A DNA stretch of 64,000 nucleotides, from NCBI GenBank assembly GCA_963732385.1, contig CAVSZB010000005.1, positions 192,001 through 256,000 of the forward strand. Reading direction: 5' to 3'. Positions 39,001 to 48,000 of this stretch are shown here, piece by piece. Source of the stretch: an uncultured bacterium. Lineage in GTDB: Bacteria; Krumholzibacteriota; Krumholzibacteriia; LZORAL124-64-63. Each line of letters begins with the position of its first letter. Within the stretch, counting starts at the first letter, position 1. Position numbers: made by a program.

Positions 39001-42000
39001 CTGATCCCGACCCCAGCCAATCGCCCGATCGACCAGGTCACTGCGGTCGCCGCGGTGCGGAGCCTGTTCCGCCTATCCGTTCCGCCATTTAGCCGCCATC
39101 CCCCACGCCCAGAGTCCGACCGTGAGAATGGTCGTGAAGGTCCCGACCAGACGCGGCTCAAGACGCAGGGGGGCGGACCCGGAGACTCTTTCGCGCAGGC
39201 TCCGGCCGAGAGCGAAGCCGACGGGCACCGCCAGCGCGCACCCGGCCGCGGCCAGGCTCCCCCCCACACCGACATGCTGCCAAAAGCCGCCGATCCCCTG
39301 CCCGCGCCAGAATTCGGAGCGGAAGACGAAGATCATGGCAAGAAAGAACAGGACATGGCCGAGGTAACAGGCAAGGGCAGCTTTCAGGCCGGCCAGACGC
39401 AAGGACTGGCGGTTGCCCGGGATCGAGACGGCCGCGGCGCGCGTTGCGGGCGACCCCCAGCCGAAAACCAGGTCGAAGGACAGGCCCAGCAGCACGATCC
39501 CGGTGAGGTGACAGGCGAAGAAGGGCACATTGAGAAATTTGTACAACATAGCCAGGGAGGCGATGACCGTGGAGCCGCCGCGATGGGGAACGAATTGCGC
39601 GGCCACGGCCAGCAGGAAGAACCCGATCACTGTCAGGTAGACCGAGGCGAAAGGAACCGCGGCCGAGTAGAGCGCATTCCCCAGGATCGCCTCGCTGAAT
39701 CCCCACAGACCGCCGAAGAGAAGAATGGCCGGCAGATGTTCCTTCTTCATGCGCGTGTCCTCCTGTTCCATTCCGCCTGGGCCGCCAGCACCTCGAGCAC
39801 TGGCCCTATCATTGCGGGTTCAAGTCCCTTCCGGGCCAGCGTCAATTGCCAGGCGGCCGGATCCGGGCCGGGGCCTCCCCGCTCCAGCACCACCTGGGCC
39901 AGGGAACGGAGCAGGTCCGCGTCGGGACGCGCACCGGGCTGAAACCCGTGGCCCCCGGCCGAAACTTCATCTTCAAGAAAGATAATTATGTCGCCCCTCC
40001 CGCGGCGGGCGAGCGCATTGCTTTCCACCACGAGGTGGCGGTGGCCCACCCCCTCCGCCTGCCGGAGAAACGCGTCCATCTCTTCGTCGGTCCGGAAGTA
40101 GCTCTCCGCTTTGCCGGGTCGGCGCTGGCTCGTCCCCTGTTTGGCGTAGACCGCCCCCGGCAGGATGCGGCTGAGCGCCAGGGCCACCTGCGTCTTGCCG
40201 ACCCCGCGGCCAGCTCCGCAGACGATCCAGAGCAGCGGCCTCCCGGGGGGCGACCCGACATCGGTCAACGGAAACACCCCAGCTGACAGTCATGGATCTT
40301 GATCTTGAGCAGGTTCATGAGCCGGCCGATGGAGCCCGCCGGCGCGTGGCAGACCGCCGCCATTTCCAGGGCGATGGAGCAGAGGATGCGCCCGCCCGGG
40401 ACCAGGCGCTCAAGGTCGCACTCCGCGGGCTGCGCTGCCTCGACGAGATTGAGCTGTCCGCCGGGCGCGTCGACCAGCGTCCAGGGCAGCGCCTCGGCGT
40501 CGATGAATTCCTGAAGGGAGGCGCGCCGTTGCGCGCCGACACCGATGGTGATTGCCGTCGGGTTCATAACCGGTCACCCTCCGTGGGCCAGGTGAAATAC
40601 CGCAAGGCTCGCCCCGTCGGGCAAAAGCCGCAGGGAGTATTCGTCCTCGGGCACCAGAACGCCGTCCACGGTCACGGTCATGAGGACATAGTCATAGCGG
40701 AGGATGTCCAGCACATCCTGGACGGTCAGCCCGTCCCTCCACTCGATCCGATCCCGATCATTGACGATCAGCATTTACCCGCCGCACTCCTCCAGGCCCC
40801 GCCGGACCAGGAACTCCACCGCCGCATTGGCCTGCAGGTTGGCCGCAATGGCCACGCGGGGGGCGCACAATCCCTCGCTCGAATCCGATTCGCCGTCGCC
40901 GCACATGACGATCATACCGCTTCGCCGCACGCGCAACGCTTCGGTGTTTCCCAGGCCGGACACGCCGCTCGCCGCCACTACCGGACGGTCGGGAAAGGCC
41001 CGGCACCAGGCCTCGATCAGCCATTGCTTGCTCTCGGCCCGGTCGAAAGCCTCGATCAGGACCTCGGCCTGGGCGAAGATCGCAGCGACGTCGGCCGGCT
41101 CCAGCCGCAGATCCCGCGCGCTGATCCGGACCTCCGGATTGATCGAACGGAGCCTGGCGGAGAGGGCCTCGGTCTTGAGCCGGCCCACGTCCTCCAGGAA
41201 ATACTGCTGCCGGTTCAGGTTCGATTCCTCGACCCGGTCGAAGTCGACCAGGATGAGCCGCCCGACTCCCGCCCGCACCAGAGACAGGGCGGCCTGGCTG
41301 CCCAGCCCGCCACAGCCGGCAATTCCGACCGTCGACCGGCGCAGGATCGCGGTCGAACCGGGGACATTGCAATCGAAGATCCCCATCCGGTCGGCCCCTC
41401 CCCGATACTCCGACCGCCTCAGGATTCCTGGTGCCCTGCCACGATCCGGACGATCTCCGGCAGGTCGATGCCGAGTTCCTTCAGCCGCGCCAAAGACGGC
41501 ACGCCGTTCGGCGTCCAGCCGCGGGCCTGGTAAGCCGCGTCGGTCACCTGCCGGTACTGGTCCTCGCGGTGCCGGCGGAGGATCGCCATCTTCTCGGCCG
41601 TACTTCGACCCGCCGGATCGACCTTGAGGATTTCGAGGAGTTGTTTGTCGTAGCGCTCGGCGCGGGACTCGTACTCTTCCGGCGTGACCGGCCCCATGGC
41701 ACGGTACGGTGGAATGTCGTCCTCGCGCTTCCCTTTGCCCAACAGAACCGAGAGGCAGCGCTGCAGATTGTACACCCGGGCCGACTGGGCCAGCATCGAC
41801 GCCTCGTCGAGCGGGCGTCCGGTCATGCCTTCGAAAAACCTGAAGTAGTTCTCGACGTGCCCGGGAATCTTGGCCGCCAGCTTGGGCGGCAAAGTCTTGT
41901 TGTCGGCGGGGACCACGTCATTCCAGATGATCTTGCAGAGTCCCTGCAGCCCGAACCAGGTCCGCCAGAGGGGGAAGTAATACAGGGCCTCGGCCTTGTC

Positions 42001-45000: not shown

Positions 45001-48000
45001 GAATCGACGATCTCCTTCAGGTCCTGCGGACCGACCTTCTGGTAGAAGACACCCTCCGGCTGCACGACCACGATGGGGCCCATGGCGCAGAACCCGTTGC
45101 ATCCGGTCTGCACCACCAGGTAGTCCCGCTCCAGGCCCCGCTCGCGGAGTTCGGCGTTCAACCCGTCGCGCACGCTGTACCCGCCGGCCGAGAGGCAGCC
45201 CGTGCCGGTGCAGACCATGAGCATGGCCTTGTAGCCCGCCTGGAGCTTGGTCTGCTCGGCCGCGATCCGTTCCAGGTCCGTGATGTCGAGCCTAGGCATG
45301 GTCCGCACCCCCCGGAGCCCTTTTCGCCGCCATCTTCTTGACCAGCCGGGCCACGTCTCTGGCTTTGACGTTTCCCACGATCTCGTTTCCGAACCGCACC
45401 ACCGGAGCGAGGCTGCAGGCGCCGAGACAGGCCACCGGTTCGAGGCTGTACCTGCCGTCTTCGGAGGTCTCGCCGGCCTGGATCCCAAGCACCCGCTCGA
45501 AGCCCGCCAGAATGAGGGCCGAGCCCTTGACATGGCAGGCTGTCCCCATGCAGACCTGGATCACCGTCTCGCCCCGCGGTTCGAGGCTGAAGGCCTTGTA
45601 GAAGGTGGCGATGTGATAGAGGTAAGCGGCCGGCACGCCCGTTTCGAGACAGATCTCATCGAGGGCCGTCTTCGGGAGGTGCCGGAACCGCTCCTGCACA
45701 TCCTGAAGCATCTCGATGACGTATTCCGGGTCGTTGTTCCACTTGCGGACAATGGCCCGGACCTCCTCCACTTCGTTCGCGCAGGTCAGCAGAGACAGGC
45801 GCTTCGGAGTGATCTGGGCCGCCACCTTGTTCTCGGCGATGCGCCAGGCGGGGGTGATGCCAGGATTCTTGATCACGAGAGCCTTGAGTTTCTTGTCGCG
45901 GAAGACCGTGCCGATTCCGCCGCGCCCCGCCTGCTTGAGCCGCGCCACGCGCCGGCGCCAGTCCCAGAAGGAGAAGTTCAAAACCCCCATCCGCGTGTGC
46001 TCGGCGCCGCGTCCGGCGGAGACGACGGCGATGTTCCGCATGTCGAGTTCATCCGCGGCGTACATCCTGGTCAGCTCCTCAGCCAGGATGTGCGAGTCGA
46101 CGCTCTCGAGCGGGGCGGCCTCGATCGTGATCCGGCGGGCGGCCGCGTCGATGGCGATGATGGTCTCCTGCGACGCCTTGCCGACGATGGCCAGCGCATC
46201 GAAACCTGCGAATTTCAGGAAAGGGCCGAAATACCCCCCGACATTGCAGTCGATCACGATGTCGGTCAGAGGAGAGATGGCCGTGACCAGCGTCTTGCCC
46301 GAACCGGGAAACGACGTCGTGCCGCCGAGCGGGCCGGAGCACAGGCAGATCGGATTCTCCGGGCTATCCCACTTCGTGTCCGCGCTGATCTCCTGGAGCG
46401 TGATCCAAAGGTCGAAGCCCTTGCCCCCGGTCCAGAGTTCCTTCATCTGCTCCGTCACCGGATGCAGGGTGATCTCGTTCCGGCCGAGATCGATCCGGAG
46501 CCAGCGACCGGCATAGCCCCGGTAAAGCTCGACGGGGTCGTAGACCAGCTCCTGGAGCAGGCAATGCGCGCTCCGCATTCGTTCCGTGTCGTGCATGGGC
46601 ATGCCGCTGTCTCCCGGGTAGTCGGGTATCCGCCCCGGAGAGGCTGCGGCCGGAAGCACGGCCACACTCCCCGGCGAGTCGCCCACCTGCAACTTCAGAA
46701 AGTGCCCGGCGAATGGACCCCAAGCGGGCAATCAGGATTGAGCTGGAATTTAGGCCAGGCGCAGGGCGGGGTCAACGACCGGGTGGCAAGCCCGCACGGT
46801 CCGCTGACCCCGCCACGAGGAACGGCTGCTGCTGAAGACCGCTAACGCGCCTGTGACTCCGGGATTGCCGGCGTCTCTGGCAACAGGCCCCGTTTGCGCA
46901 GGAGCGGTTCCACCGAGGGATCCTTGCCCCGGAAACGGCGATACGCTTCCGCCACGTCGCCGGTTCCGGCGCGTTCCAGGATGTTCGCCCGGAAAGAGGC
47001 GGCGGTGGCCTGGTCGAAGATCCCCTTCTCCCTGAATGCCTCGAAGGCATCGTTGTCCAGCACCTCTGACCACAGGTACGAGTAGTACCCGGCCGCGTAT
47101 CCACCGTTGAAAATGTGGTAGTAGCTCGGCGTGCGGTGGATCGAGGCGGCGTAGCGCGGCATCCCCATGCGCTCGAACGAAGCCTTCTCGAACGCCCCGG
47201 CATCCACTTCGTCCGGCGCGGTCAGGGTGTGCCAGTCGAGGTCGAGCAGCACGGTGGAGACCATCGCCACGGTGCCCAGCCCCTGATTGAAGGTCTCGGC
47301 CTGCTTGATCTTCGCGATGACCTCGTCGGGCAGGGGCTCGCCCGTCTTGTAGTGGCAGGCGTAGACCTTCAGGACCTCCGGCTCCAGCGCCCAGTGTTCC
47401 ATGATCTGGGACGGCAGCTCGACGAAGTCCCACGGCACGCCGCCGAGCGCCGAGTAGTGCACGCGGGTGAGCAGGGAGTGCAGGGCATGGCCCAACTCGT
47501 GGAAGAGGGTCAGCGCCTCGCCGCGGGAGAGCAGGGCCGGAGCATCCCCGGTGGGCGGCGTGAAGCTCGCCACGTTGGTTACGATCGGCCGGATGTCCTT
47601 GCCGTTGCGCACGCAGGCGTCACGGTAACCTCCCGACCACGCGCCGGCCCGCTTGCCCGCGCGCGGGAACAGATCCATCAGCAGCACGCCCAGGTGGGTC
47701 CCGTCCGCCTCCTTCACCTCGAAAACGCGCACGTCGGGGTGGTATCTGGGCGCGTCCTTCAACTCGGTGAAGGTCAGCCCATAAAGCCTGGTGGCGACGG
47801 AAAACGCGCCTGCCCGCACCCGCTCGAGGGGGAAGTAGGGACGCAGCGCCTCCTCATCGAGGTCGAAGCGAGCCTTCTTGAGCTTCTCGGAGTAGTAGCT
47901 CCAGTCCCACGGCTCGATCTGCCCGCCCTTGACGTGCTCGTCGAGCATGGTCTGCAGGACCCTGGCGTCCTCGTCGGCTTTGGCAACCGCCGGCGCCCAG

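Follow-up and report, generated by a model that had tools for sequence, protein, structure and literature searches.

A WOR catalytic protein split between two Bfu subunits in uncultured bacteria: a candidate bifurcating aldehyde oxidoreductase

The WOR catalytic protein, WorL, is normally a single chain. In an uncultured bacterium of the Krumholzibacteriota it is split, and each half is fused to a Bfu subunit within an operon of three overlapping genes (Table 1). From this operon we infer what is probably a heterotrimeric bifurcating aldehyde:NAD+/ferredoxin oxidoreductase, [WorL-N–BfuC][BfuB][BfuA–WorL-C], which would be free of WorS, have a 1:1 stoichiometry, and carry a cofactor that is likely acquired. 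We found no description of this split Wor-Bfu architecture in print. It adds an arrangement that current surveys miss because WorL is selected by the presence of both domains in one sequence (PMC13328260), so that these surveys underestimate how diverse WORs are in uncultured anaerobes. A WorS-free 1:1 trimer, or a dimer when N, C, and B are fused, would be the simplest bifurcating tungsten enzyme and a cleaner object in which to study the importance of the nanowire and the route of aldehyde electrons to flavin.

Gene architecture and the catalytic module

The genes lie in the window, the 64,000-nucleotide stretch of contig CAVSZB010000005.1 that was analysed. Their three translated frames contain no internal stops. 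Genes 1 and 2 overlap by 8 nt, gene 1 terminating within the start of gene 2, whereas the overlap of genes 2 and 3 is 1 nt (TGATG at 43416). The genome-wide survey's note had described three overlapping genes encoding AFOR_N–BfuC, BfuB, and BfuA–AFOR_C, and the translations, overlaps, and Pfam domains agree; its split-and-fused architecture is further confirmed by recurrence over GTDB loci. AFOR_N and AFOR_C each have exactly one match in the host genome, both in this operon, and the best PDB match of gene 3 is Acetomicrobium mobile WorA (9mqx_A, 3.7e-37).

Table 1. Operon features and downstream genes, in window positions; residue numbers refer to the protein of the gene named.
Feature	Position	Strand	Evidence and sites
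Gene 1, AFOR_N–BfuC, 436 aa	45292..46602	-	Translation, Pfam
Gene 1, WorL domain 1 (AFOR_N)	aa 32-245, nt 45868-46509	-	Pfam 6.3e-45
Gene 1, BfuC/HydC (2Fe-2S_thioredx)	aa 282-424, nt 45331-45759	-	Pfam 4.1e-42; C1 [2Fe-2S] ligands C351, C356, C392, C396
Gene 2, BfuB/HydB flavin subunit, 627 aa	43416..45299	-	Translation; Pfam Complex1_51K, NADH_4Fe-4S, N-terminal thioredoxin-like 2Fe-2S, Fer4 x2 (SLBB below its cut-off)
Gene 2, sites		-	B5 C30, C35, C67, C71; NADH motif A224, M226; FMN motif F304; GGPSG 427-431; B1; B2/Zn site C468, H555, C561, C566; B3/B4 (8 Cys)
Gene 3, BfuA–AFOR_C, 665 aa	41419..43416	-	Translation; Pfam Fer2_4 aa 5-82, Fer4_7 132-187, AFOR_C 209-650 (3.3e-81)
Gene 3, WorA-type BfuA Fe-S module	aa 1-193	-	A1 C38/49/52/68; 2[4Fe-4S] domain; His-ligated A3 motif absent
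Gene 3, WorL domains 2-3	aa 209-650	-	Cluster ligands C276, C280, C284, C494; second shell T229, E311, Y432, H453
ThiF-family adenylyltransferase, 203 aa	40775..41386	-	NF006395 above cut-off; 32 nt after gene 3
ThiS/MoaD-like sulfur carrier, 66 aa	40574..40774	-	GG end; 'WorX'-like; translationally coupled to thiF
83-aa ORF, no assigned function	40315..40567	-	One homologue (L003, 43%) among fetched loci
176-aa P-loop protein, weakly MobB-like	39747..40277	-	PF03205 on 31% of members of 0.90 Atlas match; a lead only
225-232-aa membrane protein	39073..39771	-	Candidate ECF-type S component

Together the halves tile an intact WorL of about 712 aa from the same uncharacterised clade at 48-60% identity. 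Residues 7-249 of gene 1 correspond to 4-246 of one such intact relative (L112), and residues 193-662 of gene 3 to its 249-716. Identity of this clade to solved WORs is about 20%. A fold of both halves together, a check that the survey's note could not run, gave an ipSAE of 0.92 against 0.00 for the best control, with runs agreeing in at least 92% of contacts and a partner pLDDT of at least 90. The ipSAE mark is reached by 116 of 157 solved pairs and by 2 of 215 mismatched pairs, and this pass may reflect likeness to the solved one-chain WorL. In the model, AFOR_N contacts residues 276-282, where cluster ligands lie, as well as 124-132 and 158-178 of the BfuA dicluster. The halves would re-associate, closing a metal-bis-pyranopterin site between two polypeptides.

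The second shell T229/E311/Y432/H453 corresponds to PfAOR Thr243/Glu313/Tyr427/His448, with roles as given in PMC12096430, and is identical in 59 of 59 rows together with D335/D340, N120, and all 16 Cys of the gene 3 clusters. Also typical of a WOR is the invariant four-Cys [4Fe-4S] site (C276, C280, C284, C494), although its spacing is CxxxC rather than CxxC. In gene 1, K103, N120, K223, Q224, and R227 are invariant in the 59 rows and map to PfAOR R76, N93, R182, A183, and R186. At the Mg/phosphate and pterin positions N120, D335, and D340 are kept (PfAOR Asn93 and Asp338/343), while A183 is Gln. The clade-wide changes at cofactor positions are R76>K, R182>K, CxxC>CxxxC, Y452>W, and Gly, in most rows, at the second DxxGLC Asp.

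Judged on its intact second shell, the enzyme is not a BamB/YdhV-type WOR, a type marked by loss of these residues together with a Cys ligand to the metal. All four aldehyde-oxidiser second-shell residues are kept, unlike in ASOR, GAPOR, WOR4, BamB, and YdhV, which argues for a simple aldehyde as substrate, as does, weakly, the presence of an aldehyde dehydrogenase gene close by (5 of 81 loci, plus L170 and L177). It is conceivable, though unlikely, that the same split enzyme and bifurcating core act instead on a sulfonate, a sugar phosphate, or another metabolite, or work mainly as an acid reductase, as every solved WOR is distant from this clade, the family changes substrate (cf. WOR5/ASOR, GAPOR/GOR, and BamB), and the H-x-E-A-W motif is closer to FOR than to AOR.

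Bifurcating module and known systems

Bifurcation was judged by the criteria of PMC9304861 (Figs S9-S10) and PMC7311640. The BfuBC core is complete, with the FMN site, the B1-B5 ligands and their conserved His, and C1. The bifurcating-type NADH, FMN, and SLBB residues of PMC7311640 are present as A224, M226, F304, and GGPSG 427-431, which supports, at the sequence level, the bifurcation proposed in the survey's note. The FMN motif has Phe where non-bifurcating controls have Tyr, its correspondence to the Phe367 numbering of that paper being approximate. All B1/B2/B3/B4 ligands and H555 are kept across 56 near-full-length BfuBs, and C468 in 55 of them. The split architecture is no guarantee of bifurcation, since 9 of the 10 variant BfuBs examined lack the NADH motif. 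Degenerate forms in the family (L015, L048, L059, L079, L080, L041, and others), and the statement in PMC12096430 that even for WOR1 no endergonic step has been demonstrated, could point to a module that just passes electrons on to a single acceptor, either NAD+ or ferredoxin. Such a relay is improbable here, however, as all the published sequence features are present in this copy, namely the B2-B5 ligands, His555, A224/M226, the Phe of GAGAF, and GGPSG.

For the favoured bifurcating enzyme, an electron path can be proposed by homology to WorABCSL. Aldehyde would be oxidised to the acid at the metal, most likely tungsten across the family, and electrons would pass from the WorL [4Fe-4S] cluster (C276/280/284/494) directly to A4-A2-A1, the BfuA clusters carried by the same polypeptide, and on to B1-FMN, where they would be split between NAD+ and ferredoxin (via C1-B3/B4). 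There would be one catalytic site per bifurcating core and no 3:1 nanowire, which would make this a Type 1 rather than a Type 2 Bfu enzyme.

WorABCSL of A. mobile (Wor-Bfu, Class IV WOR; PDB 9MQX; PMC12318220, PMC9304861, PMC13328260) likewise combines a WOR catalytic module with BfuABC. The two share a BfuA with A1, A2, and A4 but not A3, and a GES-type FMN motif in BfuB, as in the clade-45 members of PMC9304861 Fig. S10. In contrast to that system, WorL here is divided, with one part joined to BfuC and the other to BfuA, its domains 2-3 stand in place of the Zn-finger and C-terminal adaptor helix of WorA, and there is no WorS and hence no (SL)3 nanowire. The catalytic module also belongs to another WorL clade (19% identity to 9mqx_D), and the order is N-C, B, A-L, whereas Class IV WORs, which are Type 2 Bfu enzymes, are defined by separate WorS and WorL in the order SLCBA or CBASL. 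The supplement of PMC9304861, which the survey's note had thought might list this clade, gives Wor-Bfu in one form only, a Type 2 enzyme of five subunits, and no Wor member is included among the Type 1 Bfu enzymes of that paper (FeFe-HydABC, Nfn-, Fdh-, and F420-Bfu). In Type 1 enzymes the catalytic domain sits on BfuA and is fed through A4. Gene 3 has this arrangement, but domain 1 is on another chain, either BfuC or, in the four-gene form, a free one. The working definition of the 2026 WOR classification (PMC13328260) places AFOR_N and AFOR_C in one WorL polypeptide; here they are on two genes.

Cofactor supply and downstream genes

A search of the host genome, which is 95.8% complete, found neither MoaA, MoaC, MoaE, and canonical MoeA nor the recognised tungstate/molybdate binding proteins WtpA, TupA, and ModA. 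Its PF12849 and PF13531 matches were rejected as W/Mo binders, being PstS and a sulfate-binding protein. Tungsten is thus a putative assignment in this host, drawn from the family and the neighbouring genes. What appears to be new is this lack, both in the host and in most carriers of a phylum sample. In that sample of 121 genomes, 74 of the 79 carriers of this WOR clade have no moaA, moaC, or moeA, near-single-contig genomes included, and both MoaA and MoaC are missing from 15 of 50 related genomes. Most likely, this host and many others without moaA/C/E would acquire ready-made cofactor.

The counts among carriers might also be explained by a WOR clade without pyranopterin, relying on another metal-sulfur site that is possibly ThiF/ThiS-built, or by an inactive apo-enzyme in moa-less hosts. 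The clade-wide substitutions at cofactor positions and the five near-single-contig genomes whose single PF00994 matches lie in CinA-sized frames fit such a reading, yet it seems more doubtful still than simple electron relay. Hosts with and without moa genes have the same Mg/phosphate and pterin motifs, and xanthine-oxidase-family enzymes are kept in 109 of the 121 genomes, so the gap is host-wide and not WOR-specific. The host itself keeps YqeB, YqeC, XdhC, a MocA-like gene, and a divergent MoeA. In other hosts WtpABC adjoins the operon (13 of 81 loci, many of them kin), often with moaA/moaC/moeA.

Beyond acquisition of the cofactor by such hosts, a bolder reading is plausible but falls short of probable. 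It holds that a widespread minimal bifurcating WOR with a two-polypeptide metal-pterin site occurs in anaerobes that make no molybdopterin and are without a known Mo/W transporter, loaded through novel uptake or salvage (candidates being the adjacent ThiF/ThiS, MobB-like, and ECF-S-like genes) or, less likely, holding a non-pterin metal site. If true, most genomes of a whole bacterial phylum would be auxotrophic for a metal-pterin cofactor. PMC6147048 likewise describes orphan molybdoproteins, whose genes lie in genomes that have neither a Moco pathway nor a Mo transporter. Orphans in that survey, which could not rule out genome incompleteness, belong mostly to the DMSOR and XO families, whereas here a WOR clade and XO are affected in most of the phylum sample, near-single-contig genomes included. 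With molybdopterin synthesis missing in many hosts, the old orphan question becomes a way to test directly whether bacteria take up the cofactor.

The ThiF/ThiS-like genes reported to follow the operon are present as an adenylyltransferase and a GG-ending frame (Table 1), and the ThiF cluster is found in 41 of 81 loci, counting the window. In 11 split loci, weak homologues of the 176-aa P-loop protein are neighbours of wtp/moa clusters, and the membrane protein after it is possibly a cofactor importer, although this is a weak lead.

Recurrence and origin of the split

The same order recurs in 80 GTDB loci, all MAGs, as three-gene or two-gene forms, and a four-gene form with a free AFOR_N also exists. 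The wide spread in uncultured anaerobes claimed by the survey's note is thereby borne out. Its minimal three-gene form is right for this locus but not as a general state, as N, C, and B are fused in 44 of the 80. Its claim that WorS is absent holds for 78 of the 80 split loci, the other two having a WorS-like gene, and for the host genome, which has no full-length WorS match. AFOR_N and BfuC share one frame in all 80 loci, that fusion being the selection query. In an unselected test, AFOR_C was in frame with a BfuA-type Fe-S domain in all 66 loci whose contig reaches AFOR_C, with an early stop in that Fe-S domain in one (L039). This recurrence rules out chance or assembly error as the source of the split. 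An assembly artefact, or a decaying pseudogene of an intact worL broken by a neighbouring hydrogenase-like operon, can be dismissed despite the MAG origin of all 80 loci and frameshifted pieces in a same-genus genome (G052, 62% complete), being refuted by an order and in-frame fusions shared over many phylum labels at 57-95% identity, by invariant catalytic residues, and by translational coupling.

Intact WorLs of about 700-740 aa in this clade (P0005-P0007 and the intact loci among L088-L185) are 48-65% identical to the halves and share the K/K/CxxxC/HDEAW signature and the thiF/thiS neighbours of the split forms. They are single chains, however, and lack neighbouring Bfu genes (neither C nor A was matched in 78 loci), often with a 127-140-aa 4x[4Fe-4S] WorS-like gene upstream (32/78 and 14/15 intact loci). 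In the tree, the split rows, 28 of 28, are monophyletic (SH-aLRT 100) and nested within intact WorL, and this nesting suggests that bfuCBA was inserted into worL, displacing WorS. When the tree is unconstrained, the four-gene form falls beside an intact WorL and away from the other split forms, but a single origin of the three- and four-gene forms is not rejected (p-AU 0.283). The two have in common the breakpoint, a tail with P-x-W-x-I, and, compared with the genome's own HydB, 8 residues inserted in BfuB. In a single event, a clade-45-type bfuCBA cassette would have entered a worL of about 712 aa at the domain 1/2 loop, and the polyferredoxin WorS would have been dropped. The series of four-, three-, and two-gene forms would then be a record of a redox module inserted into an enzyme loop and subsequently fused.

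A split Wor-Bfu operon and its distribution

The three genes of the operon are all on the minus strand, stop-free in translation of the window and translationally coupled. By Pfam, gene 1 joins AFOR_N to a HydC/NuoE-type 2Fe-2S domain, gene 2 encodes a HydB/NuoF flavin subunit, and gene 3 joins an Fe-S module to AFOR_C. Domain 1 of the catalytic subunit WorL (the N-half) is carried by gene 1 and domains 2-3 (the C-half) by gene 3. The host genome (3.8 Mb, 95.8% complete, 9 contigs) holds a single AFOR_N match and a single AFOR_C match, both in this operon, and as such, neither half has another partner. 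The genome-wide survey's note had read the locus as AFOR_N–BfuC, BfuB and BfuA–AFOR_C on three overlapping genes, widespread in uncultured anaerobes; the translations, Pfam and an order conserved in 80 GTDB loci bear out the first point, and the many phylum titles of these MAG loci the second. The split enzyme is genuine and conserved, and adds a new form to Wor-Bfu.

A GTDB scan with gene 1 returned 197 relatives, and the best 80 of these, all from MAGs, were analysed. Titles of these best 80 of 197 loci name Krumholzibacteriota, Aminicenantes, Bacillota, Cloacimonadota, Myxococcota, Lentisphaerota, Synergistota, Bacteroidota, and others. The order N-C, B, A-L holds throughout, with N, C and B in one frame at 44/80 loci, B separate at 35/80 and one locus cut off, and AFOR_C is fused to the BfuA domain in all 66 loci that reach it. 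In a more distant four-gene form (loci L180-L182; genomes G159, G193, and G195), a free AFOR_N of 262-264 aa precedes C, B and A-L. A single-polypeptide N-C-B-A-L version was dropped, as none was found at the 80 loci or among 3313 candidates of 1165-3325 aa, the latter being a weak test. Four loci (L034, L038, L044, and L051) carry an insert of ~0.7-0.9 kb between bfuB and bfuA-worL, which in the cluster represented by L051 includes a PIN-domain gene. Three RNA runs of one study hold close-relative fragments across all three genes; these are contigs with small word shares, possibly from DNA, and are no demonstration of expression.

Split cofactor-binding subunits exist in other Mo/W families, namely FwdB/FwdD and nicotinate dehydrogenase L/M, and the two-chain pterin site is therefore novel within WOR and not among Mo/W enzymes. 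A literature search that reached neither journals behind subscription nor the 2021 PNAS clade paper found no paper on a split WorL. None is described in the accessible portions of PMC9304861, PMC12318220, PMC13328260, PMC12096430, PMC6147048, PMC7311640, PMC1779556, and PMC12018979, and the words 'fused', 'fusion' and 'split' are absent from PMC9304861.

Elsewhere in the window, two HU/IHF-like genes of 114 aa each lie 15 kb from one another and are nearly identical, the Pfam check covering the second. Downstream of the operon lie genes for citrate lyase alpha (CitF) and an HpcH/CitE-type protein that probably carries a fused acyl-carrier-like N-terminus.

Location of the operon and of features discussed in the text
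Feature	Location	Strand
Gene 1, AFOR_N–BfuC (436 aa)	window 45292-46602	-
Gene 2, BfuB (627 aa)	window 43416-45299	-
Gene 3, BfuA–AFOR_C (665 aa)	window 41419-43416	-
MobB-like and membrane protein pair	window 39073-40277	-
MobB-like and membrane protein pair	L112:2521-3790	
MobB-like and membrane protein pair	L106:1479-5716	
CitF and HpcH/CitE-type genes	window 35824-38675	-
HU/IHF-like gene, first copy	window 35322-35666	-
HU/IHF-like gene, second copy	window 50483-50827	-
Divergent MoeA, host genome	L082:7862-9010 (G000:C1)	
XO-family set and hydrogenase cluster, host genome	L085 (G000:C3:218000-230500)	
1561-aa frame, host genome	L084:5517-10202 (G000:C7)	

Catalytic module and electron transfer

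Residues were mapped to PfAOR through an intact relative, with the fourth cluster Cys placed by its motif. The cluster cysteines are retained in 59/59 rows, as are Thr243, Glu311, Tyr312, Glu313, Asp338, Asp343, Tyr427, His448 and Asn93; PMC12096430 names these residues for aldehyde oxidation and Mg binding. Changes that run through the clade are Arg76 to Lys, Arg182 to Lys, Tyr452 to Trp, a Cys motif one residue longer and Gly at the position of the second DxxGLC Asp.

A fold of both halves together, a check named in the survey's note, passed: gene 3 (1-660) was modelled in complex with gene 1 (20-262) plus Fe-S ligands, with an ipSAE of 0.92 vs 0.00 for the best control, contact agreement between runs of at least 92% and a partner pLDDT of at least 90. 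The ipSAE mark is met by 116/157 solved pairs and 2/215 mismatched pairs, rates that are only approximate for this complex, and split-gene halves may pass through their likeness to a solved one-chain WorL. The model thus speaks for compatibility of the halves, not binding. Its interface takes in cluster ligands 276-282 of gene 3 and also that gene's BfuA dicluster domain (124-132, 158-178, and 185-198), consistent with docking of this domain on the catalytic module. Modelled by AlphaFold as a single chain, gene 3 (pLDDT 80.6, pTM 0.69) has an uncertain dicluster domain; Foldseek places FOR, WorL and AOR at the top, and WorA for the N-terminal part.

The closest match to the gene 3 N-terminus is WorA (3.7e-37) of WorABCSL, the Class IV / Type 2 Wor-Bfu of Acetomicrobium mobile. 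Both are missing A3. The gene 3 module stops where the Zn finger and WorS-recruiting helix of WorA start. Gene 2 has complete B1-B5 ligands, including His555, and bifurcating-type NADH, FMN and GGPSG motifs, so that the bifurcation earlier suggested from HydB likeness is upheld as far as sequence signatures go. The split enzyme is proposed to work like WorABCSL although it falls outside Class IV, and the logic of Type 1 Bfu, with the catalytic domain on BfuA itself, fits it. On a proposed path modelled on WorABCSL and NfnABC with the WorS leg removed, electrons would pass from the metal through the WorL cluster, A4, A2 and A1 to B1-FMN, where they would be split to NAD+ and, via C1-B3/B4, ferredoxin. 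A2 and A4 are presumed to be particular Cys sets under ferredoxin-fold rules. The NADH motif or whole Bfu domains are gone in some relatives (L015, L048, L059, L079, L080, L041, L053, L055, L056, and L039), which are possibly ferredoxin-only versions; the window copy is intact.

Probable origin from an intact WorL

The nearest whole proteins are uncharacterised WorLs of 700-740 aa with 44-56% identity to the C-half. The halves tile intact WorLs; at the domain 1/2 loop they leave a gap or overlap of only a few residues. A tree of 78 rows groups the 28 split rows, whose choice by likeness to the query biases towards monophyly, into one clade several starred nodes deep within intact WorL (SH-aLRT 100, the only type of support used). 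A free tree (29 split rows in, 12 rows dropped) sets the four-gene rows beside an intact WorL, apart from other split forms. A single origin of three- and four-gene forms was not rejected in the AU test (18 split rows, 31+5 rows dropped; p-AU 0.283), and they have in common the breakpoint, a BfuB insert and a P-x-W-x-I tail that is missing from the five intact proteins compared.

No Bfu genes were found near intact relatives at 78 metagenome loci. A 4x[4Fe-4S] WorS-like gene lies upstream of intact worL at 32/78 metagenome loci and at 14/15 intact loci of the phylum sample; it occurs at 2/80 split loci, in line with the earlier claim that this enzyme has no WorS subunit. In the simplest history, the order of which we infer, bfuCBA would have inserted into worL, BfuA would then have fused to the C-half, WorS would have been lost, and finally the N-half would have fused to BfuC and in many lineages also to BfuB. 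Divergent homologues with altered catalytic Glu/His motifs, the BfuA-fused P0009 and the intact P0008, P0018, P0024, and P0049, may be non-catalytic or have changed chemistry.

Metal and cofactor supply

Downstream of gene 3 are thiF and then a thiS-like gene, and ThiS/ThiF neighbours are a known feature of WORs. A WtpABC transporter (TIGR03730 above cut-off) adjoins the operon in 13/81 loci, often with moaA, moaC and moeA, many of the hosts being kin. Both kinds of neighbour would count in favour of W. A count of ThiS-like clusters (57/81 loci) was set aside, as spurious ORFs were mixed in.

In the host genome, gene searches with positive controls in 11/14 genomes, confirmed by tblastn, found no MoaA, MoaC, MoaE or canonical MoeA; the sole MoeA-like gene encodes a divergent MoeA whose N-terminal domain is degenerate. 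Matches to W/Mo binding proteins turned out to be PstS and a sulfate transporter. The genome nevertheless has genes for enzymes of the XO and DMSOR families and for YqeB/YqeC/XdhC/MocA-like maturases. An XO-family three-gene set sits directly upstream of a hydrogenase cluster (HydC/HydB, flavoprotein, [FeFe]-hydrogenase, and hydrogenase-sensor kinase), and a 1561-aa frame elsewhere combines the C-terminal part of NuoF with glutamate-synthase-like and Fdh/NuoG-like regions, the NuoF start lying in other frames (possible frameshifts).

Among 50 of the 80 related genomes, 15 have neither MoaA nor MoaC; MoeA is also missing from 11 of these 15. We also sampled 121 genomes from the phylum of G027 (Cloacimonadales), requested at a nominal completeness of at least 92%, which are kin and not independent draws. 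This WOR clade is carried by 79/121, 15 of them with a full-length BfuA-fused match. MoaA, MoaC and MoeA co-occur in the same 11/121 genomes, only five of them carriers, and WtpA is confined to 7 of these 11; XO-family Moco domains are found in 109/121 genomes, with 1-4 matches each. Examples of the gap are G083, G090, G096, G097, and G110. By these gene contents, molybdopterin auxotrophy appears to extend across the phylum, unless synthesis takes an unknown route. Orphan molybdoproteins, for the most part DMSOR and XO, were reported earlier in PMC6147048; the literature search found no paper on the gap in this phylum. The most valuable lead of the finding is the question of how these hosts obtain the cofactor.

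The gap concerns the host as a whole and the pterin motifs have not changed, which makes it more likely that finished cofactor is taken up or salvaged, or that synthesis follows an unrecognised route, than that the WOR works without pterin. A mere assembly gap is possible for the host genome alone (9 contigs, 95.8%) and unlikely in general, since MoaC is also missing from two same-genus genomes, G051 and G052 (G052 is 62% complete and G051 apparently equals G001) and near-single-contig genomes are without the pathway; five carriers are near-single-contig at 2.2-4.4 Mb.

For uptake of cofactor or metal, a candidate unit is a gene pair found repeatedly beside WOR genes: a MobB-like P-loop gene and, after it, one for an uncharacterised membrane protein of ~205-232 aa. 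Homologues of the membrane protein occur in 5/15 moaC-less vs 2/35 moaC-bearing genomes, several matches being partial; as a general cofactor importer it is too sparse in the phylum sample (8/121) and is kept as a weak lead. At L106, genes for a TonB-dependent receptor and an NTPase accompany the pair.
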